From assembly GCA_963724695.1 (NCBI GenBank), contig CAVRVW010000008.1, positions 237,290-301,289 of the forward strand: a DNA stretch of 64,000 nucleotides, in the 5' to 3' direction. This stretch comes from an uncultured Acidobacteriota bacterium. GTDB lineage: Bacteria > Acidobacteriota > Vicinamibacteria > Vicinamibacterales > CAVVIG01. Positions 7,986 through 63,108 of the stretch are shown piece by piece. Both the position numbers and the translations under genes were made by a program. The notes under the pieces were generated by a model. That model ran no database searches and was not told the origin of the DNA. It saw nothing but the letters and a program-made list of their open reading frames with translations. Positions within the stretch are counted from its first letter, which is position 1. Every line of letters starts with the position of its first letter.

Positions 7986-8034
7986 CAATCTGCAATCAGC
8001 ACTCAGCAATCAGCACTTCGCAATCTGCACTTCC
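7986..8034. repeat. Tandem heptanucleotide array, 7 units CA[AC]T[CT][AT]G
   Basis: Read directly: caatctg caatcag cactcag caatcag cacttcg caatctg cacttcc. The same AATCAGC word family recurs at 11926-11957. Confidence 0.9.
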
Positions 8035-8131
8035 CGGCTCTGACGGCCGCCTCCGCCAAGGCTACGGCGCCCAGCCTTCGCGGACGGGCTTGCCAGCCGA
8101 AGCCCTTCGCCCCGGCGAGGAGGGCGAAGGC

Positions 8132-8207
8132 TGGTGGGCCCACCAGGATTCGAACCTGGAACAGACCGGTTATGAGCCGGCGGCTCTGACCGTTGAGCTA
8201 TGGGCCC
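8132..8207 (-). tRNA. tRNA-Met (anticodon CAT; elongator type or possibly tRNA-Ile2), CCA encoded
   Basis: The reverse complement folds as a cloverleaf: GGGCCCA-TA-GCTC-AACGGTC-AGAGC-C-GCCGG-CTCATAA-CCGGT-CTGTT-CCAGG-TTCGAAT-CCTGG-TGGGCCC-ACCA. The G1-C72 pair argues against an initiator tRNA. Confidence 0.9.
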
Positions 8208-8213
8208 TCTCTG

Positions 8214-8269
8214 GTCCTTGGGCCTTGGGCCTTGGTTCTTGGTCGGTCCTTAGTCCTTGGTCCTTGGTG
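8214..8269. repeat. Tandem heptanucleotide array (TCCTTGG / GCCTTGG / TTGGTCC type, ~8 units)
   Basis: tccttgg gccttgg gccttgg ttcttgg tcggtcc ttagtcc ttggtcc ttggtgc. Starts 6 nt from the tRNA 5' end. Confidence 0.85.
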
Positions 8270-8305
8270 CGGTCAAGGTGGTCCATTGTGCCACGTTTTT
8301 CACCA

Positions 8306-8354
8306 CCCGTCCCCGTTCCCCGTTCCCCGTTCCCTGATCCCCGTTCCCCGTTCC
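8306..8354. repeat. Tandem heptanucleotide array (CCCCGTT, ~6 units)
   Basis: ccccgtt x3, ccctgat, ccccgtt x2. Abuts the rpoD stop codon (8355-8357). Its reverse complement GGGGAAC/GGGGATC recurs at 16791-16814. Confidence 0.9.
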
Positions 8355-10077
8355 CTATGAAGTTCGTCCTTCCAGGAAAGCGCGCAGCTTGCGGCTGCGC
8401 GACGGATGCCGCAGCTTGCGGAGCGCCTTGGCCTCGATCTGCCGGATGCGCTCGCGGGTGACGGCGAAGCTCTGGCCGACCTCTTCGAGCGTGTGCTCGC
8501 TTCCGTCGCCGACGCCAAACCGCATCTTGATCACCTTCTCCTCGCGGGGCGTCAGCGTCTTCAGCACCGACTCGGTCTGTTCCTTGAGGTTCAGGTTGAT
8601 GACGGCCTCGGCCGGCGACACGACCTGACGGTCCTCGATGAAGTCGCCAAGATGCGAATCTTCCTCTTCGCCGATGGGCGTTTCGAGCGAGATGGGCTCC
8701 TGCGCGATCTTGAGGACCTTCCGGACCTTGCTGACCGGGATGTCCATGCGCTTGGCGATCTCTTCGGAGGTGGGCTCGCGCCCCAGCTCCTGCACGAGCG
8801 CGCGAGAGGTCCGAATGAGCTTGTTGATGGTCTCGATCATGTGGACCGGGATGCGAATCGTTCGCGCCTGGTCGGCGATCGCGCGGGTGATGGCCTGCCG
8901 GATCCACCACGTGGCGTAGGTCGAGAACTTGTACCCGCGGCGGTACTCGAACTTGTCCACGGCCTTCATCAGGCCGATGTTGCCTTCCTGGATGAGATCC
9001 AGGAACTGCAGGCCGCGGTTCGTGTATTTCTTGGCGATGGAGACCACGAGGCGGAGGTTGGCCTCGACGAGCTCCTTCTTCGCCTGCTCGGCCTGCCACT
9101 CGCCGCGGATGATCGTGTCGAGCGTCTGCTTCAGCTCCGCGGGCTCCTGCTCGAGCGTATCGGTCATCGCCTTGAGCTTGAGCTTCTGGTCCTTGGTCTG
9201 CTTCAGGAGGTTCTTCCTGTCCTCCTCGCGCAGCTTCTGCTTCTTGTTCTTGGGGTGCAGCAACCGGTCGATCGCTTCGATCTCGCGCTGCACGCCCTTG
9301 ACGCCTTCGACGGCTTCCTTCATCTCGTCGATGAGCCGCCGCTTCACGGCTTCGGTGAACTCGATCCGGCGAATCGCGTTCGAGACATCGACGCGCGCGC
9401 GCATCGCGGCCCACCGGGCTTTCCGGTACTTCCTCTTGTCGCGTGTCGTCGCGCCCTTGGGGGTGCTCGCCAAGCTTCTCGTCGAGCTTCTCGGACGCCG
9501 TGCGCGCCTTGCGCACGCCGTCGATCTGCTTCTGGACCTGGCGCGAGCGCTCCTGGATCCGTTCGTCCGTGATCTCCTCGTCGTTGAAGATCACCAGCTC
9601 GCGGATGGTCCGCTCGCCCGAGTGCAGTTCGTCGCCGAGGCGGATCACCTTCTTGGCGACGAGCGGCGTGCGGGAGATCGACTTGATGACGGCCAGCTTG
9701 CCGCGCTCGATGCGCCGCGCGATCTCGACCTCGCCTTCGCGGGTGAGCAGCGGCACCGTGCCCATTTCGCGGAGATACATCCGGACCGGATCGTTCGTCT
9801 TGTCGAGCGCGCCCGGCGTGAGATCGAGCTCGATCTCCTCGGAGCCCTCGGCCGTGCGGTCGATGGTCTTCTCGTCGCGCAGGTACTTCTGGTCCGAGTC
9901 GATGACCTCGATGCCGGCGCTGCCGAACGTGTTGAAGAGATCGTCGAGCTCTTCGGAGGACGTGATTTCCGACGGCAGCAGCTCGTTCACCTCGTCGTAC
10001 AGGAGATAGCCCTTCTCCTTGCCGATGTTGATGAGTTGCCGGACTTCGTCGTATTTCTCTTCGATCGACACGCGCAT
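8355..10077 (-). pseudogene. rpoD: RNA polymerase primary sigma factor RpoD, reading frame broken once as assembled (probable 1-nt insertion in the G5/C5 run at 9459-9463)
   Basis: Regions 1.1-1.2 (MRVSIEEKYDEVRQLINIGKEKGYLLYDEV...TNDPVRMYLREMG) are in the frame starting at 10077. Regions 2-4 ([67 protein letters not shown]...[18 protein letters not shown]) are in the 8355-9473 frame, offset by one nt. Past ~9460 the first frame yields only Arg/Gly/Pro-rich nonsense. Confidence 0.9.
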
Positions 10078-10082
10078 GCCTC

Positions 10083-61535: not shown

Positions 61536-61630
61536 GTGACGTGGTAGCCCCGGGGCCCGTGTTCGGGCCCCGGTGAGCGACGTCGCCGGGTCCTTTCGGA
61601 CCCGGCAGCAAGTGTCAGGGAGAGTCTGCC

Positions 61631-62074
61631 ATGTCAATGAGTGTTGGCGGGGATAAAGGCGGGGTCAAGGCCGACATCAACGTGACGCCCCTCGTGGACG
61701 TCATGCTGGTGCTGCTCATCATCATGATGCTCGTCGCCCCCATGCTGCAGCAGGGCGTCAGCGTCCAGCTGCCCCGTGCGAGCAATTCCGACCAGAAGCC
61801 GGAGTCGCAGGAACAGGCGGTGATCGCCATCGCGGCGAACAAGTCCCTCTACCTGAATGCACGGCCGATTCAGGAGGCCGAGCTCGCGACCAAGGTCAGT
61901 GAGTTTCTCGAGAGCAAGAGCGAGAAGATCGTCCTGATCAAGGCCGACATCGACGTGGACTACGGGACCGTGATGGCGGCGATGGACCAGCTGCGGACCG
62001 CCGGCGTCGAGGACATCGGCCTCATCACCGAGCCACGCCAGGAGCAGGGCGCGCCGTCAGGAGGTCAGGACTAA
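61631..62074 (+). CDS. exbD: Biopolymer transport protein ExbD/TolR
   Basis: ADINVTPLVDVMLVLLIIMM anchor motif and a periplasmic domain. Confidence 0.9.
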   Translation: MSMSVGGDKGGVKADINVTPLVDVMLVLLIIMMLVAPMLQQGVSVQLPRASNSDQKPESQEQAVIAIAANKSLYLNARPIQEAELATKVSEFLESKSEKIVLIKADIDVDYGTVMAAMDQLRTAGVEDIGLITEPRQEQGAPSGGQD

Positions 62075-62544
62075 TGGCTCACGCCCATCATCATCTCGGC
62101 GCCGACAAGGTCGTCACCAGCGCACTGCCGACGGCCAGCTCCGACATGAACGTCACGCCGCTCATCGACGTGCTGCTCGTGCTGCTCGTCATCTTCATGG
62201 CCACCCTGCCGCTCGGACAGCGCGGGATGGACATCAACCTCCCGGCCGAGACGAAGAGCGCCGCGCAGGTCGACACGACCGTCAGCCAGATCGTGCTCGA
62301 CTACTCGGCCGATCGCCGGATCAGCATCAACCAGAAGGACATCCCCATGGCCGGGCTCGAAGGCGAGCTGCGGACCATCTTCGAAGCCCGCAAGGACAAG
62401 AAGATGTTCATCATGGGAGCCGAGACGCTTCGCTACGGCGACATTGTCGAGGTCATCGACGCGGCGCGCGGCGCCGGCGTCGAGCAGGTGGGCATCATCA
62501 CGGCCGGCATGCGTCGCGCCGCCGGCGTCCAGGCCAGCAACTAG
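62074..62544 (+). CDS. exbD: Biopolymer transport protein ExbD/TolR (second copy)
   Basis: DMNVTPLIDVLLVLLVIFM anchor motif. Its start overlaps the previous stop (TAATG). Confidence 0.9.
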   Translation: MAHAHHHLGADKVVTSALPTASSDMNVTPLIDVLLVLLVIFMATLPLGQRGMDINLPAETKSAAQVDTTVSQIVLDYSADRRISINQKDIPMAGLEGELRTIFEARKDKKMFIMGAETLRYGDIVEVIDAARGAGVEQVGIITAGMRRAAGVQASN

Positions 62545-62689
62545 CCGCCGGCTTCGCCGGCGGAAGTTCGAACTTCGAAGGCAGAACTACGAAGGACATC
62601 GTCCTTCGTAGTTCTTCCTCCGTCGGCACTGCATTCGTGCCTCACTTCCTTAGTTCGTAGTTCTTCCTTCTAAGTTCTAACTTCCCAGC
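62545..62689. repeat. Composite hairpin/heptamer repeat region upstream of sugE
   Basis: Hairpin CCGCCGGC-ttc-GCCGGCGG (62545-62563). Perfect 15-bp hairpin agaactacgaaggac-atc-gtccttcgtagttct (62583-62615). The TTCNNNN heptamer block ttcgtag ttcttcc ttctaag ttctaac ttcc (62654-62685) is repeated exactly at 63077-63108. Confidence 0.9.
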
Positions 62690-63016
62690 ATGGCTTCGTC
62701 CTGGATCATCCTCGGTGTCGCCGCCCTCTGCGAGGTCGCGTGGGCCATCGGCCTCAAGTACTCGGAGGGCTTCAGCCGGCTGTGGCCATCGCTCTGGACG
62801 CTCGCCATGCTGGCGCTGAGCGTGGGCCTGCTGGCCCTGGCGGCTCGAACGCTCCCTATCGGGACCGCTTATGCCGTCTGGACCGGCCTCGGCGCCGCCG
62901 GCACGGCGGTCCTGGGCGTCTGGTTGTTCGGGGAGTCGATGACCGCCCTCAGGCTCGCCTGCATCGGCCTGATCGTCGCTGGCGTGGTGGGATTGAAGCT
63001 CGTGTCGCCGGAGTAG
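62690..63016 (+). CDS. sugE: SMR-family small multidrug resistance / guanidinium exporter (SugE/Gdx-like)
   Basis: 108-aa ORF with 4 TM helices. ALCEVAWAIGLKYSEGF contains the conserved membrane Glu. YAVWTGLGAAGTA. Confidence 0.88.
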   Translation: MASSWIILGVAALCEVAWAIGLKYSEGFSRLWPSLWTLAMLALSVGLLALAARTLPIGTAYAVWTGLGAAGTAVLGVWLFGESMTALRLACIGLIVAGVVGLKLVSPE

Positions 63017-63032
63017 AACGAGGCACCGAGTG

Positions 63033-63065
63033 AAAAAAGGCCCGAGCGGAGCGCACCCGGGCCTT
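63033..63065 (-). terminator. Rho-independent terminator (minus strand) of the TonB-dependent receptor gene
   Basis: The minus strand reads AAGGCCCG-ggtgcgctccgct-CGGGCCTT followed by TTTTTT. Confidence 0.6.
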
Positions 63066-63073
63066 CGAACGAG

Positions 63074-63108
63074 TCCTTCGTAGTTCTTCCTTCTAAGTTC
63101 TAACTTCC
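63074..63108. repeat. Second copy of the TTCNNNN heptamer block
   Basis: tccttcgtagttcttccttctaagttctaacttcc. 63077-63108 is identical over 32 nt to 62654-62685. Confidence 0.9.

Follow-up and report, generated by a model that had tools for sequence, protein, structure and literature searches.

What are the short tandem repeats that occupy so many intergenic spacers in a 64,000-nt stretch of DNA from an uncultured Acidobacteriota bacterium (contig CAVRVW010000008.1; the whole stretch is hereafter called the window), and what generates and maintains them? Head-to-tail arrays of units of 7 nt, and at some sites of 8 or 9 nt, had been noticed there in an inspection of the letters without database searches (the sequence-only reading), which likened them to the heptanucleotide repeats of heterocystous cyanobacteria and guessed at an Acidobacteria-like host. 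Our analysis leads us to the view, to which we assign a probability of about 60%, that the arrays are order-wide, semi-selfish repeat elements which grow by duplication, gain an inverted arm, in one family resemble repetitive extragenic palindromic (REP) elements and their hairpin-forming doublets (REPINs), and persist in transcribed gaps and linkers.

The abundance of the arrays exceeds what base composition predicts. Tandem Repeats Finder (TRF) and direct reading recovered arrays at the positions where they had been described. When the whole window was subjected to 100 dinucleotide shuffles and scored at a TRF threshold of at least 45, the four period-7 arrays of the real sequence compared with 0.00 in the shuffles, the three period-14 arrays with 0.19, and the two arrays each of periods 8 and 9 with none. 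In 200 shuffles confined to the 28 spacers (4,023 nt), which preserve their lower GC content, arrays of period 7, 14, 8 or 9 averaged 0.03 and never exceeded 1, against the 12 arrays actually present, so that the proposed excess over composition-matched controls survives. The claim that the arrays fill the spacers holds for about half of them: approximately 14 of the approximately 30 spacers of at least 20 nt carry an array, whereas about half are ordinary GC-rich sequence. Arrays occur at about 16 sites per 64 kb and are built from more than 10 units, of which only the GAAnnnn and GCWGATT types recur.

To place the window phylogenetically we used the 80 loci whose DnaG came closest to that of the window, which served as query (one genome per species, about 20 kb taken from each). 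Clade statistics refer to these 80 loci plus the window (1.6 Mb), whereas searches for second copies and transposases covered 1.9 Mb; labels of the type L001 denote comparison loci or contigs, and percentages of identity are given relative to the window. All but three of the loci carry the titles Acidobacteria gp6, Vicinamibacterales or Acidobacteriota. They share their gene order with the window, have a GC content of 62-71% (63-70% in the window), and reach 72% amino-acid identity in the best DnaG match; the order gltA-GT2-purE-like-mutS2-dnaG-rpoD-tRNA-Met-Zn-ribbon is kept in these relatives. The host is therefore a member of the Vicinamibacterales, in subdivision 6 of the Acidobacteriota, which agrees with the lineage guessed from the letters. 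The three loci with other titles, L032 (CAYLTD010000018.1), L046 (CALQBJ020000052.1) and L068 (JAIEMQ010000047.1), are labelled Bifidobacterium sp., Bifidobacterium breve and Cyanobacteriota, respectively; each has the Vicinamibacterales gene order, a GC content of 64-68% and a DnaG 56-67% identical to that of the window, and these metagenome-assembled genome (MAG) records appear to be mislabelled or contaminated bins.

The preference for a 7-nt unit extends over the clade, and 63 of the 80 related loci hold arrays of period 7, 14 or 21. A census of periods at a TRF score of at least 38 returned 102, 75 and 54 arrays of periods 7, 14 and 21, compared with 7, 26, 13, 20 and 18 for periods 6, 8, 10, 11 and 13, making 7 nt the modal unit length. 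A count that does not depend on TRF, based on at least four identical 3-mers at a fixed spacing, yielded 215 clusters at spacing 7 and 15, 60, 32 and 21 at spacings 5, 8, 10 and 11; the 130 and 95 clusters at spacings 6 and 9 come from GC-rich coding anchors, as multiples of three. TTC/GAA, CTT/AAG and AGT/ACT are the leading anchors at spacing 7. The 102 period-7 arrays comprise 70 canonical heptamers, with GCWGATT-type and GAAG-type units foremost, and the arrays are enriched in AT, their mean GC content being 52.5% compared with 65.3% for the loci.

Placement relative to genes is equally non-random. In most cases in the window the array begins 0-3 nt from a stop codon, as the sequence-only reading had observed, and the genes marked in this way are rpoD, mutS2, a purE-like gene, a glycosyltransferase gene, the citrate synthase gene, rpiB, an alkylation-repair gene, thiC and an outer-membrane gene. 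Arrays were likewise confirmed inside operons (mutS2-dnaG and rpiB-glyA) and in one divergent region. Those at positions 7986-8034 and 63073-63109 lie between a tRNA or a gene and a canonical terminator consisting of a GC stem and a T-run, a location which points to the arrays being transcribed, as 3' untranslated region (UTR), intercistronic spacer, tRNA leader or tRNA trailer. Across the clade, non-coding arrays of periods 7 and 14 number 117 in co-directional, 18 in convergent and 7 in divergent spacers, where 103, 20 and 19 would be expected from the 725, 138 and 133 spacers available (chi-square about 9.5, p about 0.009, the orthologous spacers not being independent); arrays are thus depleted about three-fold in divergent promoter gaps. 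Individual junctions are occupied in a fraction of the species: period-7-type arrays were found in 30 of 68 loci between rpoD and the tRNA, in 11 of 71 between mutS2 and dnaG (with octamers in 7 more), in 14 of 56 between purE and mutS2, in 16 of 57 between the tRNA and the Zn-ribbon gene, and in none of 60 in the divergent GT2/purE gap, the borders of which are approximate.

Two structural classes can be distinguished. For 82 of the 207 non-coding arrays of the clade with a period of 7n or 8n, an inverted partner lies no more than 200 nt away, against 0-11 in reversed or complement-only controls; such doublets make up about 40% of arrays and form hairpins of roughly 25-45 bp. At five sites in the window the inverted pairs fold into the long hairpins that had been predicted for them, with z-scores of -4.5 to -9.4, whereas in the direct arrays structure does not exceed that of their shuffles (z of -0.8 to +0.7). 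The gap between the mutS2 stop and the dnaG start is wholly occupied by the doublet (CTGATTG)n-loop-(CAATCAG)n at 11880-11960 on the minus strand (TRF 11928-11960, unit AATCAGC; stem of about 29 pairs), and the fold of 11877-11960 has a dG of -38.7 and a z of -7.9. An inverted pair of 9-nt units (GGTCTGGNN and its complement; 14366-14446, minus strand; TRF 14366-14402) lies between the stop of the AIR-carboxylase-like gene and the start of mutS2 (z of -4.5 for 14341-14446). An octamer doublet, TGGTCANN / NNTGACCA, at 34721-34798 (TRF 34727-34792; z of -7.7) takes in both convergent stop codons, of thiC and of a gene for a 178-aa protein. Octamers also form the pair made up of a left arm (GCAGGATG)n at 38614-38662 (plus strand; TRF 38618-38663; inverted repeat I4) and a right arm (CATCCTGC)n at 38763-38800 (plus strand; TRF 38766-38795), the latter in the 3' end of an open reading frame (ORF) for a radical-SAM protein; the fold of 38596-38815 has a z of -6.4. 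The fifth site, 62561-62685, belongs to the GAAnnnn family. The doublets have a polarity: in co-directional spacers G outnumbers C in 28 of 29 5' arms, C outnumbers G in 30 of 36 3' arms, and single arrays are more often purine-rich on the sense strand (56 versus 32). Since a palindromic doublet reads with its G-rich arm first on both strands, this polarity is a head-to-head rule of the element and not necessarily one of transcription.

The GAAnnnn arrays form a dispersed family. The sequence-only reading had listed NNNNGAA arrays at three sites; TRF misses most of these degenerate heptads, and inspection of the copies upheld them as 84-100% identical to one another. In the arms at 18044-18079, 62561-62597, 62654-62685 and 63073-63109, five different heptads follow one another in the same order. 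The single arm at 18039-18084 (plus strand) occupies the whole gap between the convergent stops of the genes for citrate synthase and an amidohydrolase (Pfam) and is 84-86% complementary to 62654-62685 and 63072-63107, representing the same element in the opposite orientation. The site at 62561-62685 (plus strand; inverted repeats I3 and I9) lies between the exbD stop and the start of a small multidrug-resistance (SMR) gene; its arm 62561-62597 pairs both with 62601-62620 and with 62654-62685, and the fold of 62545-62692 has a dG of -65.4 and a z of -9.4. The single arm at 63073-63109 is in sense orientation on the minus strand; it immediately follows the stop of a gene for an outer-membrane beta-barrel protein (63111-63947, minus strand; Pfam) and is upstream of the terminator hairpin of that gene (about 63033-63066, GC stem plus U-run). 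Direct copies of the GAA arm, 32 nt long and 100% identical (62654-62685 and 63077-63108), flank the SMR gene (62690-63016) together with the terminator of the neighbouring gene, an arrangement that looks like a recent duplication or the insertion of an SMR cassette into an array.

A metagenome scan with the 21-mer GAAGGNAGAACTNNGAAGGAC retrieved 55 contigs, from which we obtained 52 distinct GAAnnnn copies, on contigs that have 60% GC or more and come from many samples (13 of the contigs from one sample), and the flanks differ each time. Conservation starts abruptly 14-15 nt upstream of the 21-mer and stops right after it, which delimits an arm of about 36 nt, GGAAGTTAGAACTTAGAAGGAAGAACTACGAAGGAC. 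In 30 of the 52 copies an inverted partner follows after a loop of 3-52 nt; 25 of the 52 lie against the stop codon of an ORF on the same strand with high GC at third codon positions, and one copy (in L101) sits between the rpoD stop and tRNA-Met. Independent slippage would not yield the same five-heptad order in about 50 contexts, so that this family, at least, either disperses as a whole or has its sequence under selection. The claim that the unit differs from locus to locus therefore stands for the more than 10 units of the window and fails for the GAAnnnn sites, which are one dispersed element. On the evidence of these copies, the dispersal is REP/REPIN-like and not the outcome of locus-specific slippage. 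The copies follow the family consensus without pairwise covariation, as the complementarity of each arm to its own partner is not raised.

Comparison of strains gives a view of turnover. Two contigs from Joint Genome Institute (JGI) metagenomes, L001 and L002, encode the glyA protein identically; the contigs themselves are 99.6% and 99.8% identical to the window, without gaps, and the rpiB-glyA array is unchanged in both. The array of the divergent gap at 30863-30939 is unchanged in L002, whose first position (window position 30930) falls inside the array, which suggests that heptamer arrays fragment short-read assemblies of this lineage. In four further contigs that cover the octamer hairpin 3' of thiC, the hairpin is identical in one relative of 99.7% and one of 95.7% identity, has an extra unit and altered variants in both arms in the 96.5%-identical L086, and has lost its 67-nt core entirely in the 99.3%-identical L084, where the convergent stops are 2 nt apart (TGA-AT-TCA) and the borders are marked by a 3-nt AAT repeat. 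The comparison of copy number between strains, as had been proposed, thus finds no change at 99.6-99.8% identity and a change at 96.5%, or about 3.5% divergence. The arrays thus remain unchanged over very short times. Their evolution outpaces that of the flanking DNA, and they can appear or vanish as whole units.

The same picture emerges between species. The mutS2-dnaG gap measures 6-20 nt in most of them and holds 45-290 nt of arrays, mostly doublets, in about 20, with units that differ by lineage: CTGATTG in the window, L006 and L023, AGATTnn in L040, L048, L059 and L066, and octamers in L005, L016, L019 and L027. The gap between the rpoD stop and tRNA-Met is about 10 nt long in some species and contains a doublet in many others. 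In some loci the unit copies the last codons of the gene together with its stop, as in L019 (AGGAGTGA followed by GGGGTGAT) and L014 (TTCGTAG followed by TCGnnAG); seeding of array units from the stop-codon heptamer is suggestive only.

Arrays are also found within genes. Of 173 placed arrays of periods 7 and 14, 142 lie in spacers, 26 in sequence called coding and 5 at a locus end; the non-triplet units thus fall largely outside coding sequence, as is usual for simple sequence repeats (SSRs). About half of the 26 are in the MutS2 coding region, mostly in the linker before the C-terminal domain, and the remainder are scattered in other ORFs. In L008, L009, L010, L013, L016, L018 and L027, (CAATCCG)n runs in frame through the MutS2 linker and yields repeats of the type QSAIRNP, and other in-frame units are present in L033/L034, L042, L054 and L069. 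Non-triplet repeats can in this way generate putatively disordered protein segments, such as the 7-residue repeats of MutS2. The in-frame arrays argue against a generating process aimed at a function and for the persistence of arrays wherever they are tolerated. In the present assembly two octamer arrays of the window likewise lie inside the 3' ends of ORFs.

From the observed non-randomness, lineage, position, structural classes, polarity, turnover, one dispensable doublet, in-frame copies and one dispersed family we infer slippage, template switching, mobility and a consequence at the RNA level. New arrays would originate and lengthen when 7- or 14-nt units are duplicated through slippage, in many cases starting from sequence beside a stop codon, and template switching may contribute the inverted copy. 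One family at least, the five GAAnnnn heptads of GGAAGTTAGAACTTAGAAGGAAGAACTACGAAGGAC, would reach further sites behind stop codons as a discrete element, like REPs, REPINs or transposable elements of the miniature inverted-repeat type (MITEs). Individual elements would be dispensable, and their likely molecular effect would be on RNA: doublets may form very stable intercistronic or 3' stem-loops that could alter processing, stability or attenuation by analogy with enterobacterial REP elements, while single arrays would provide unstructured, AU-richer leaders and trailers, for example before glyA.

Several observations weigh against this interpretation. Its steps offer no account of why 7 nt, and not 6 or 8 nt, should be favoured so sharply. 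Second copies of most window arrays are absent from the 1.9 Mb searched, so that dispersal is seen for one family and possibly two, and two approximate RAYT (REP-associated tyrosine transposase)/IS200 queries found no match by tblastn in the same 1.9 Mb (about 20 kb per genome). The relatives' loci share ancestry, which makes counts across species non-independent. Seeding at the stop codon was supported by a weak test, in which the first units resembled the stop-ending heptamer in register at 0.46 versus 0.36 for a cross-junction control (p = 0.01). Compensatory change specific to a doublet was not detected among the GAA arms (complementarity of 19.7 to the own arm versus 18.9 to those of other doublets, p = 0.13). 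Hints of selection are given by the occupancy of several junctions in 20-45% of species, by the GCWGATT array behind tRNA-Met, whose position and unit type are kept across distant species, by the orientation of single GAA arms that abut stops (9 sense versus 0 antisense-only), and by the G-arm-first polarity of the doublets.

The simplest competing account regards every array as a purely local SSR, made in place by polymerase slippage with an intrinsic 7-nt bias, similar units being convergent. Much of the material fits it: the units are diverse (the 70 heptamers in 102 arrays), most window arrays are unique, first units resemble the neighbouring stop-codon heptamer and those of L019, L014 and L040 copy the last codons, copy number has changed in L086, arrays lie in frame in the MutS2 linker, and slippage is already the hypothesis of the literature. 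What makes us think it unlikely as a full explanation is that the five-heptad GAAnnnn order recurs with sharp borders at three window loci and in about 50 unrelated contexts, that a whole 67-nt doublet was gained or lost in one step between strains of 99.3% identity, and that slippage alone does not make inverted partners. Selection may instead maintain the arrays as cis-acting RNA or DNA elements, the heptads serving as a platform for a protein with a 7-nt register (of the cold-shock-domain, S1 or CsrA type) and the doublets as RNase III or stability hairpins that set cistron expression and release tRNA-Met from the rpoD transcript. Such a role would suit the sites inside transcripts, past stop codons and ahead of terminators, the depletion in divergent gaps, the exclusively sense single GAA arms, the polarity in 28 of 29 doublets, the GCWGATT array that many species conserve behind tRNA-Met, the very stable stems (z down to -9.4), the AGGA/GGA motifs in many G-rich arms (for example CCAAGGA, GCAGGATG and GAAGGAA), and the candidate binding proteins discussed for TAACTGA repeats (PMC4679880). 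It is harder to reconcile with the dispensability of the elements, many relatives having an empty junction of 6-20 nt and one near-identical strain lacking the hairpin, with the different units that lineages carry at the same junction, with the missing doublet-specific compensatory change, with arrays inside a coding linker and with the absence of any Rfam family match; the polarity of a palindrome, moreover, need not reflect transcription. We rate this possibility slightly below that of local slippage.

A bolder variant of the mobile-element idea would make the doublets a new class of non-autonomous mobile hairpins, Vicinamibacterales-specific "heptad REPINs" with arms composed of 7-nt modules, inserted G-arm-first at or overlapping stop codons, mobilised by an enzyme and co-opted to punctuate polycistronic RNAs such as the rpoD mRNA/tRNA-Met transcript, with the 7-nt register representing the footprint of the mobilising or binding protein and not slippage; we hold this to be doubtful, to about the same degree as the purely local origin. 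Contingency loci, that is, hypermutable SSRs that switch neighbouring genes through copy number (phase variation), would also be tandem repeats near genes, and copy number does differ in the 96.5%-identical L086. Their placement after the stops of housekeeping genes (rpoD, mutS2, thiC and glyA) and not in promoters or 5' coding regions, the imperfect units and the unchanged copy number between contigs of 99.6-99.8% identity render this explanation very improbable. An artefact of assembly or sequencing in a long-read MAG, a way out that the sequence-only reading had itself named, is refuted: indel errors do exist, rpoD and mutS2 being frameshifted at C homopolymers, but identical arrays were recovered from independent JGI metagenome contigs from four samples, and 63 of 80 other assemblies display the same phenomenon. 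Semi-selfish elements of the order, duplicating locally and in one family dispersing, thus remain our preferred explanation.

The remaining sites of the window can be described along its length. The rpoD-tRNA-Met unit on the minus strand contains three direct arrays. One begins within the rpoD stop codon (TAG, 8357-8355) and consists of seven copies of GGGGAAC on the transcript, a G-quadruplex-type sequence (8306-8355; TRF score 79, CCCGTTC x7.3). A second, of about eight copies of CCAAGGA (8212-8270; TRF 8212-8268, TGGTCCT/TCCTTGG x8.6; fold z of +0.37), stops about 4 nt short of the 5' end of tRNA-Met (8132-8207). The third, at 7986-8034 (TRF 7986-8033), lies in the 3' trailer of the tRNA and reads GAAGTGCTGATTGC three times on the transcript, in heptads GCWGATT (CAATCAG on the window strand, where it is also a 14-mer); it is unstructured (z of +0.65). 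A GCWGATT-type direct array is present at this position, between tRNA-Met and the terminator, in at least 11 related species. The canonical intrinsic terminator at 7925-7952 (minus strand; 12-bp GC stem followed by T9), which is separate from the arrays, ends the unit and is conserved in most loci according to the terminator scan; its location downstream places the array inside the rpoD-tRNA-Met transcript. The possibility that the array hairpins are themselves intrinsic terminators was rejected, as they have no U-run and were not called by the terminator scan, while canonical terminators lie separately and downstream (7925-7952 and about 63033-63066). A CRISPR-like array was ruled out by the contiguity of the 7-9-mers, which have no spacers, and a Rho-utilisation-type composition of the direct arrays was dropped, their sense strands ranging from G-rich to C-rich.

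Directly 3' of tRNA-Met lies a GC-rich element of about 90 nt (about 8036-8131, minus strand) with the pattern CCTTCGC..GCGAAGG..GGCAAGCC..GCGAAGG..CCGTAGC..GGCGGAC. It is also present in L003, L004, L005, L007, L016, L024, L025, L027 and L036, and further in L048, L051, L052, L059, L062, L068, L071 and L077, sometimes in two or three tandem copies; its fold has a z of -1.7, it has no match in Rfam, and it could be a processed RNA or belong to a second family of repeats that is unrelated to the arrays. At the gathering threshold, Rfam reports only tRNA and a thiamine pyrophosphate (TPP) riboswitch in the window, with sub-threshold, terminator-driven matches alone around tRNA-Met. In the present assembly, rpoD and mutS2 are each split across two frames (window 9454-9473 and 13342-13385). 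Intact orthologues from L003 used in tblastn switch from frame -2 to frame -3 there, and the zones of the switch contain the C homopolymers CCCCC and CCCCCCC; the frameshifts are probably long-read indel errors and not signs that essential genes have become pseudogenes.

Elsewhere, a short array GGGGATC GGGGATC GGGAAC follows directly after the glycosyltransferase stop (16791-16814, plus strand; TRF score 38 for 16791-16809, x2.7, a weak call). In the gap that separates the rpiB stop from the glyA start, TTTACGA is repeated 4.4 times on the transcript (30350-30394, minus strand; TRF 30362-30392, AATCGTA); the array has 42% GC, and the 51 nt before glyA are unstructured (dG of -3.3, z of +0.7). 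In the divergent gap between rpiB and a methyltransferase gene, 4.7 copies of GGTTCAA are followed by three of the 14-mer TCTGTTCCCGGTTC (30863-30939; TRF 30863-30935). The related words TTGAACC TTGAACT at 42811-42831 (plus strand), which the sequence-only reading had counted as part of the family, amount to two units seen by direct reading with no TRF report, too short to count. A 9-mer, AGGTCGGGT, is repeated 2.6 times with a 100% match in TRF at 32100-32122 (plus strand), where it spans the methyltransferase stop and abuts the next start codon. The C-rich direct array (AATTCCN)n at 32866-32925 (plus strand; TRF 32866-32920, AATTCCC) follows the stop of the DNA-alkylation-repair gene and stops about 12 nt before the TPP riboswitch of thiC (32937-33032; Rfam, 67.6 bits), so that the thiC promoter must lie within the array or at its end. 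It is kept in the 95.7%-identical L083, with its promoter-proximal part 100% conserved and small indels only distally. Farther along, the ClpC-like ORF (36282-38696) and the convergent radical-SAM ORF (38678-39799) each run through their own octamer arm; the two overlap by 19 nt and have similar tails, LQDGRMAGLQEG and LQDGKTAGWQEG, and their native stops seem to have been displaced or to be hidden by indel errors.

How do these arrays relate to repeats known from other bacteria? They are head-to-tail repetitions of a 5-11-nt unit, longer than composition predicts, and as such belong among the long SSRs. Heptanucleotides are reported to form the most abundant class of long SSRs in most prokaryotic genomes, and the genomes richest in them include high-G+C Burkholderia, Actinobacteria and Xanthomonas (Mrazek, Guo & Shah 2007, as summarised in PMC4679880); for the 7-nt bias the suggestion published there is a polymerase footprint. 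The beyond-chance occurrence, the modal 7 nt, the mostly non-coding location and the high-G+C hosts are all shared with the long SSRs (Mrazek 2007, as summarised in PMC4679880 and PMC4692102), while the window differs from them in the high density, the imperfect AT-enriched units, the 40% of inverted doublets and the one dispersed family. In Xanthomonas (65% GC), about 185 intergenic GGGAATC arrays, of which about 70 form convergent inverted pairs, are kept in their gene context between species with variation in length and sequence and are mostly transcribed (Rehm et al. 2015, PMC4692102). These and the GGGGAYT heptamers of Nostoc resemble the window arrays in the roughly 40% of convergent inverted pairs and in positions kept among relatives with variable length (PMC4692102), and the (GGGGAAC) x7 and GGGGATC arrays are of the same G-tract type. 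In contrast to Xanthomonas, with essentially one G-rich, G-quadruplex-capable unit per genome, the window has more than 10 unrelated units, most of which are unable to form a quadruplex; at least four copies with tracts of at least three G are found only at 8306-8355, the array at 16791-16814 being borderline and the others having no G tracts. Reports of such arrays from high-G+C genera (PMC4679880) and from Xanthomonas (PMC4692102) leave unsupported the suggestion that heptamers in a GC-rich genome would be something new.

The likeness to the repeats of cyanobacteria is real, in that both are tandem heptanucleotide arrays, some with units of 8-9 nt, in non-coding gaps. CCCCAGT, TTGGTCA and CAACAGT are among the cyanobacterial units, and the window units CCCCGTT, TGGTCA(NN) and CAATCAG resemble them to some extent. 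The short tandemly repeated repetitive (STRR) sequences were described from heterocystous cyanobacteria (Mazel et al. 1990, cited in PMC4692102). The closest loci of the window are of Vicinamibacterales/Acidobacteriota type by synteny and GC content and not cyanobacterial, and whereas STRRs comprise a few unit types each at many loci, the window has a broad spectrum of units in another phylum; nor are hairpin doublets, which the window has, known as a defining feature of STRRs. REP elements occupy extragenic sites, downstream of genes and in the gaps that separate unidirectional or convergent ORFs (Di Nocera et al. 2013, PMC3733652), and RAYT transposases move both REPs and REPINs (Bertels & Rainey 2011, PMC3116915; PMC3733652). 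The positional rules, the coexistence of hairpin doublets and singlets, the gain and loss of whole doublets and the location of some copies inside repair genes are all common to them and the window arrays (PMC3116915, PMC3733652). The GAA family is REP-like in being multi-copy with sharp borders, and has a mini-palindrome with a 6-bp stem, GAAGTTnGAACTTC, at the 5' end of its arm; it differs in having no terminal GTAG/CGTC tag (CTAC is internal, present in most GAA copies and variable), in arms built of heptads and not of one palindrome, and in that most arrays are not multi-copy. The TAACTGA repeats of marine Beggiatoaceae, cyanobacteria and Bacteroidetes, for which RNA-binding proteins have been proposed as readers (MacGregor 2015, PMC4679880), are comparable as short intergenic heptamer arrays within transcripts and beside the boundaries of coding sequences (PMC4679880). 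They consist of one fixed unit upstream of starts, overlapping the ribosome-binding site, in contrast to the varied, stop-anchored units of the window. We found no demonstrated function in the literature for intergenic heptanucleotide arrays, which have been known since 1990, and no earlier account of them in the literature on Acidobacteria or Vicinamibacteria, as the sequence-only reading had supposed.

The window thus adds a new lineage to a known kind of repeat, combining heptanucleotide SSRs or STRRs, Xanthomonas-type pairs and REP-like dispersal; the REPIN-like features would set the elements apart further if mobility were proven. Three features offer concrete handles on the mechanism: the anchoring to stop codons, the doublets' polarity with the G-rich arm leading, and the dispersal of the GAA family. 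For MAG assembly and annotation the arrays matter in that they break short-read contigs (L002) and extend or invade ORFs, as in the ClpC tail and the MutS2 linker. Vicinamibacterales are among the most abundant soil bacteria, with hundreds of assembled genomes, and the density of the arrays suits comparative work: the same junction, seen empty, with a single array or filled by a doublet across species and strains, is a natural insertion/deletion series for operon expression.

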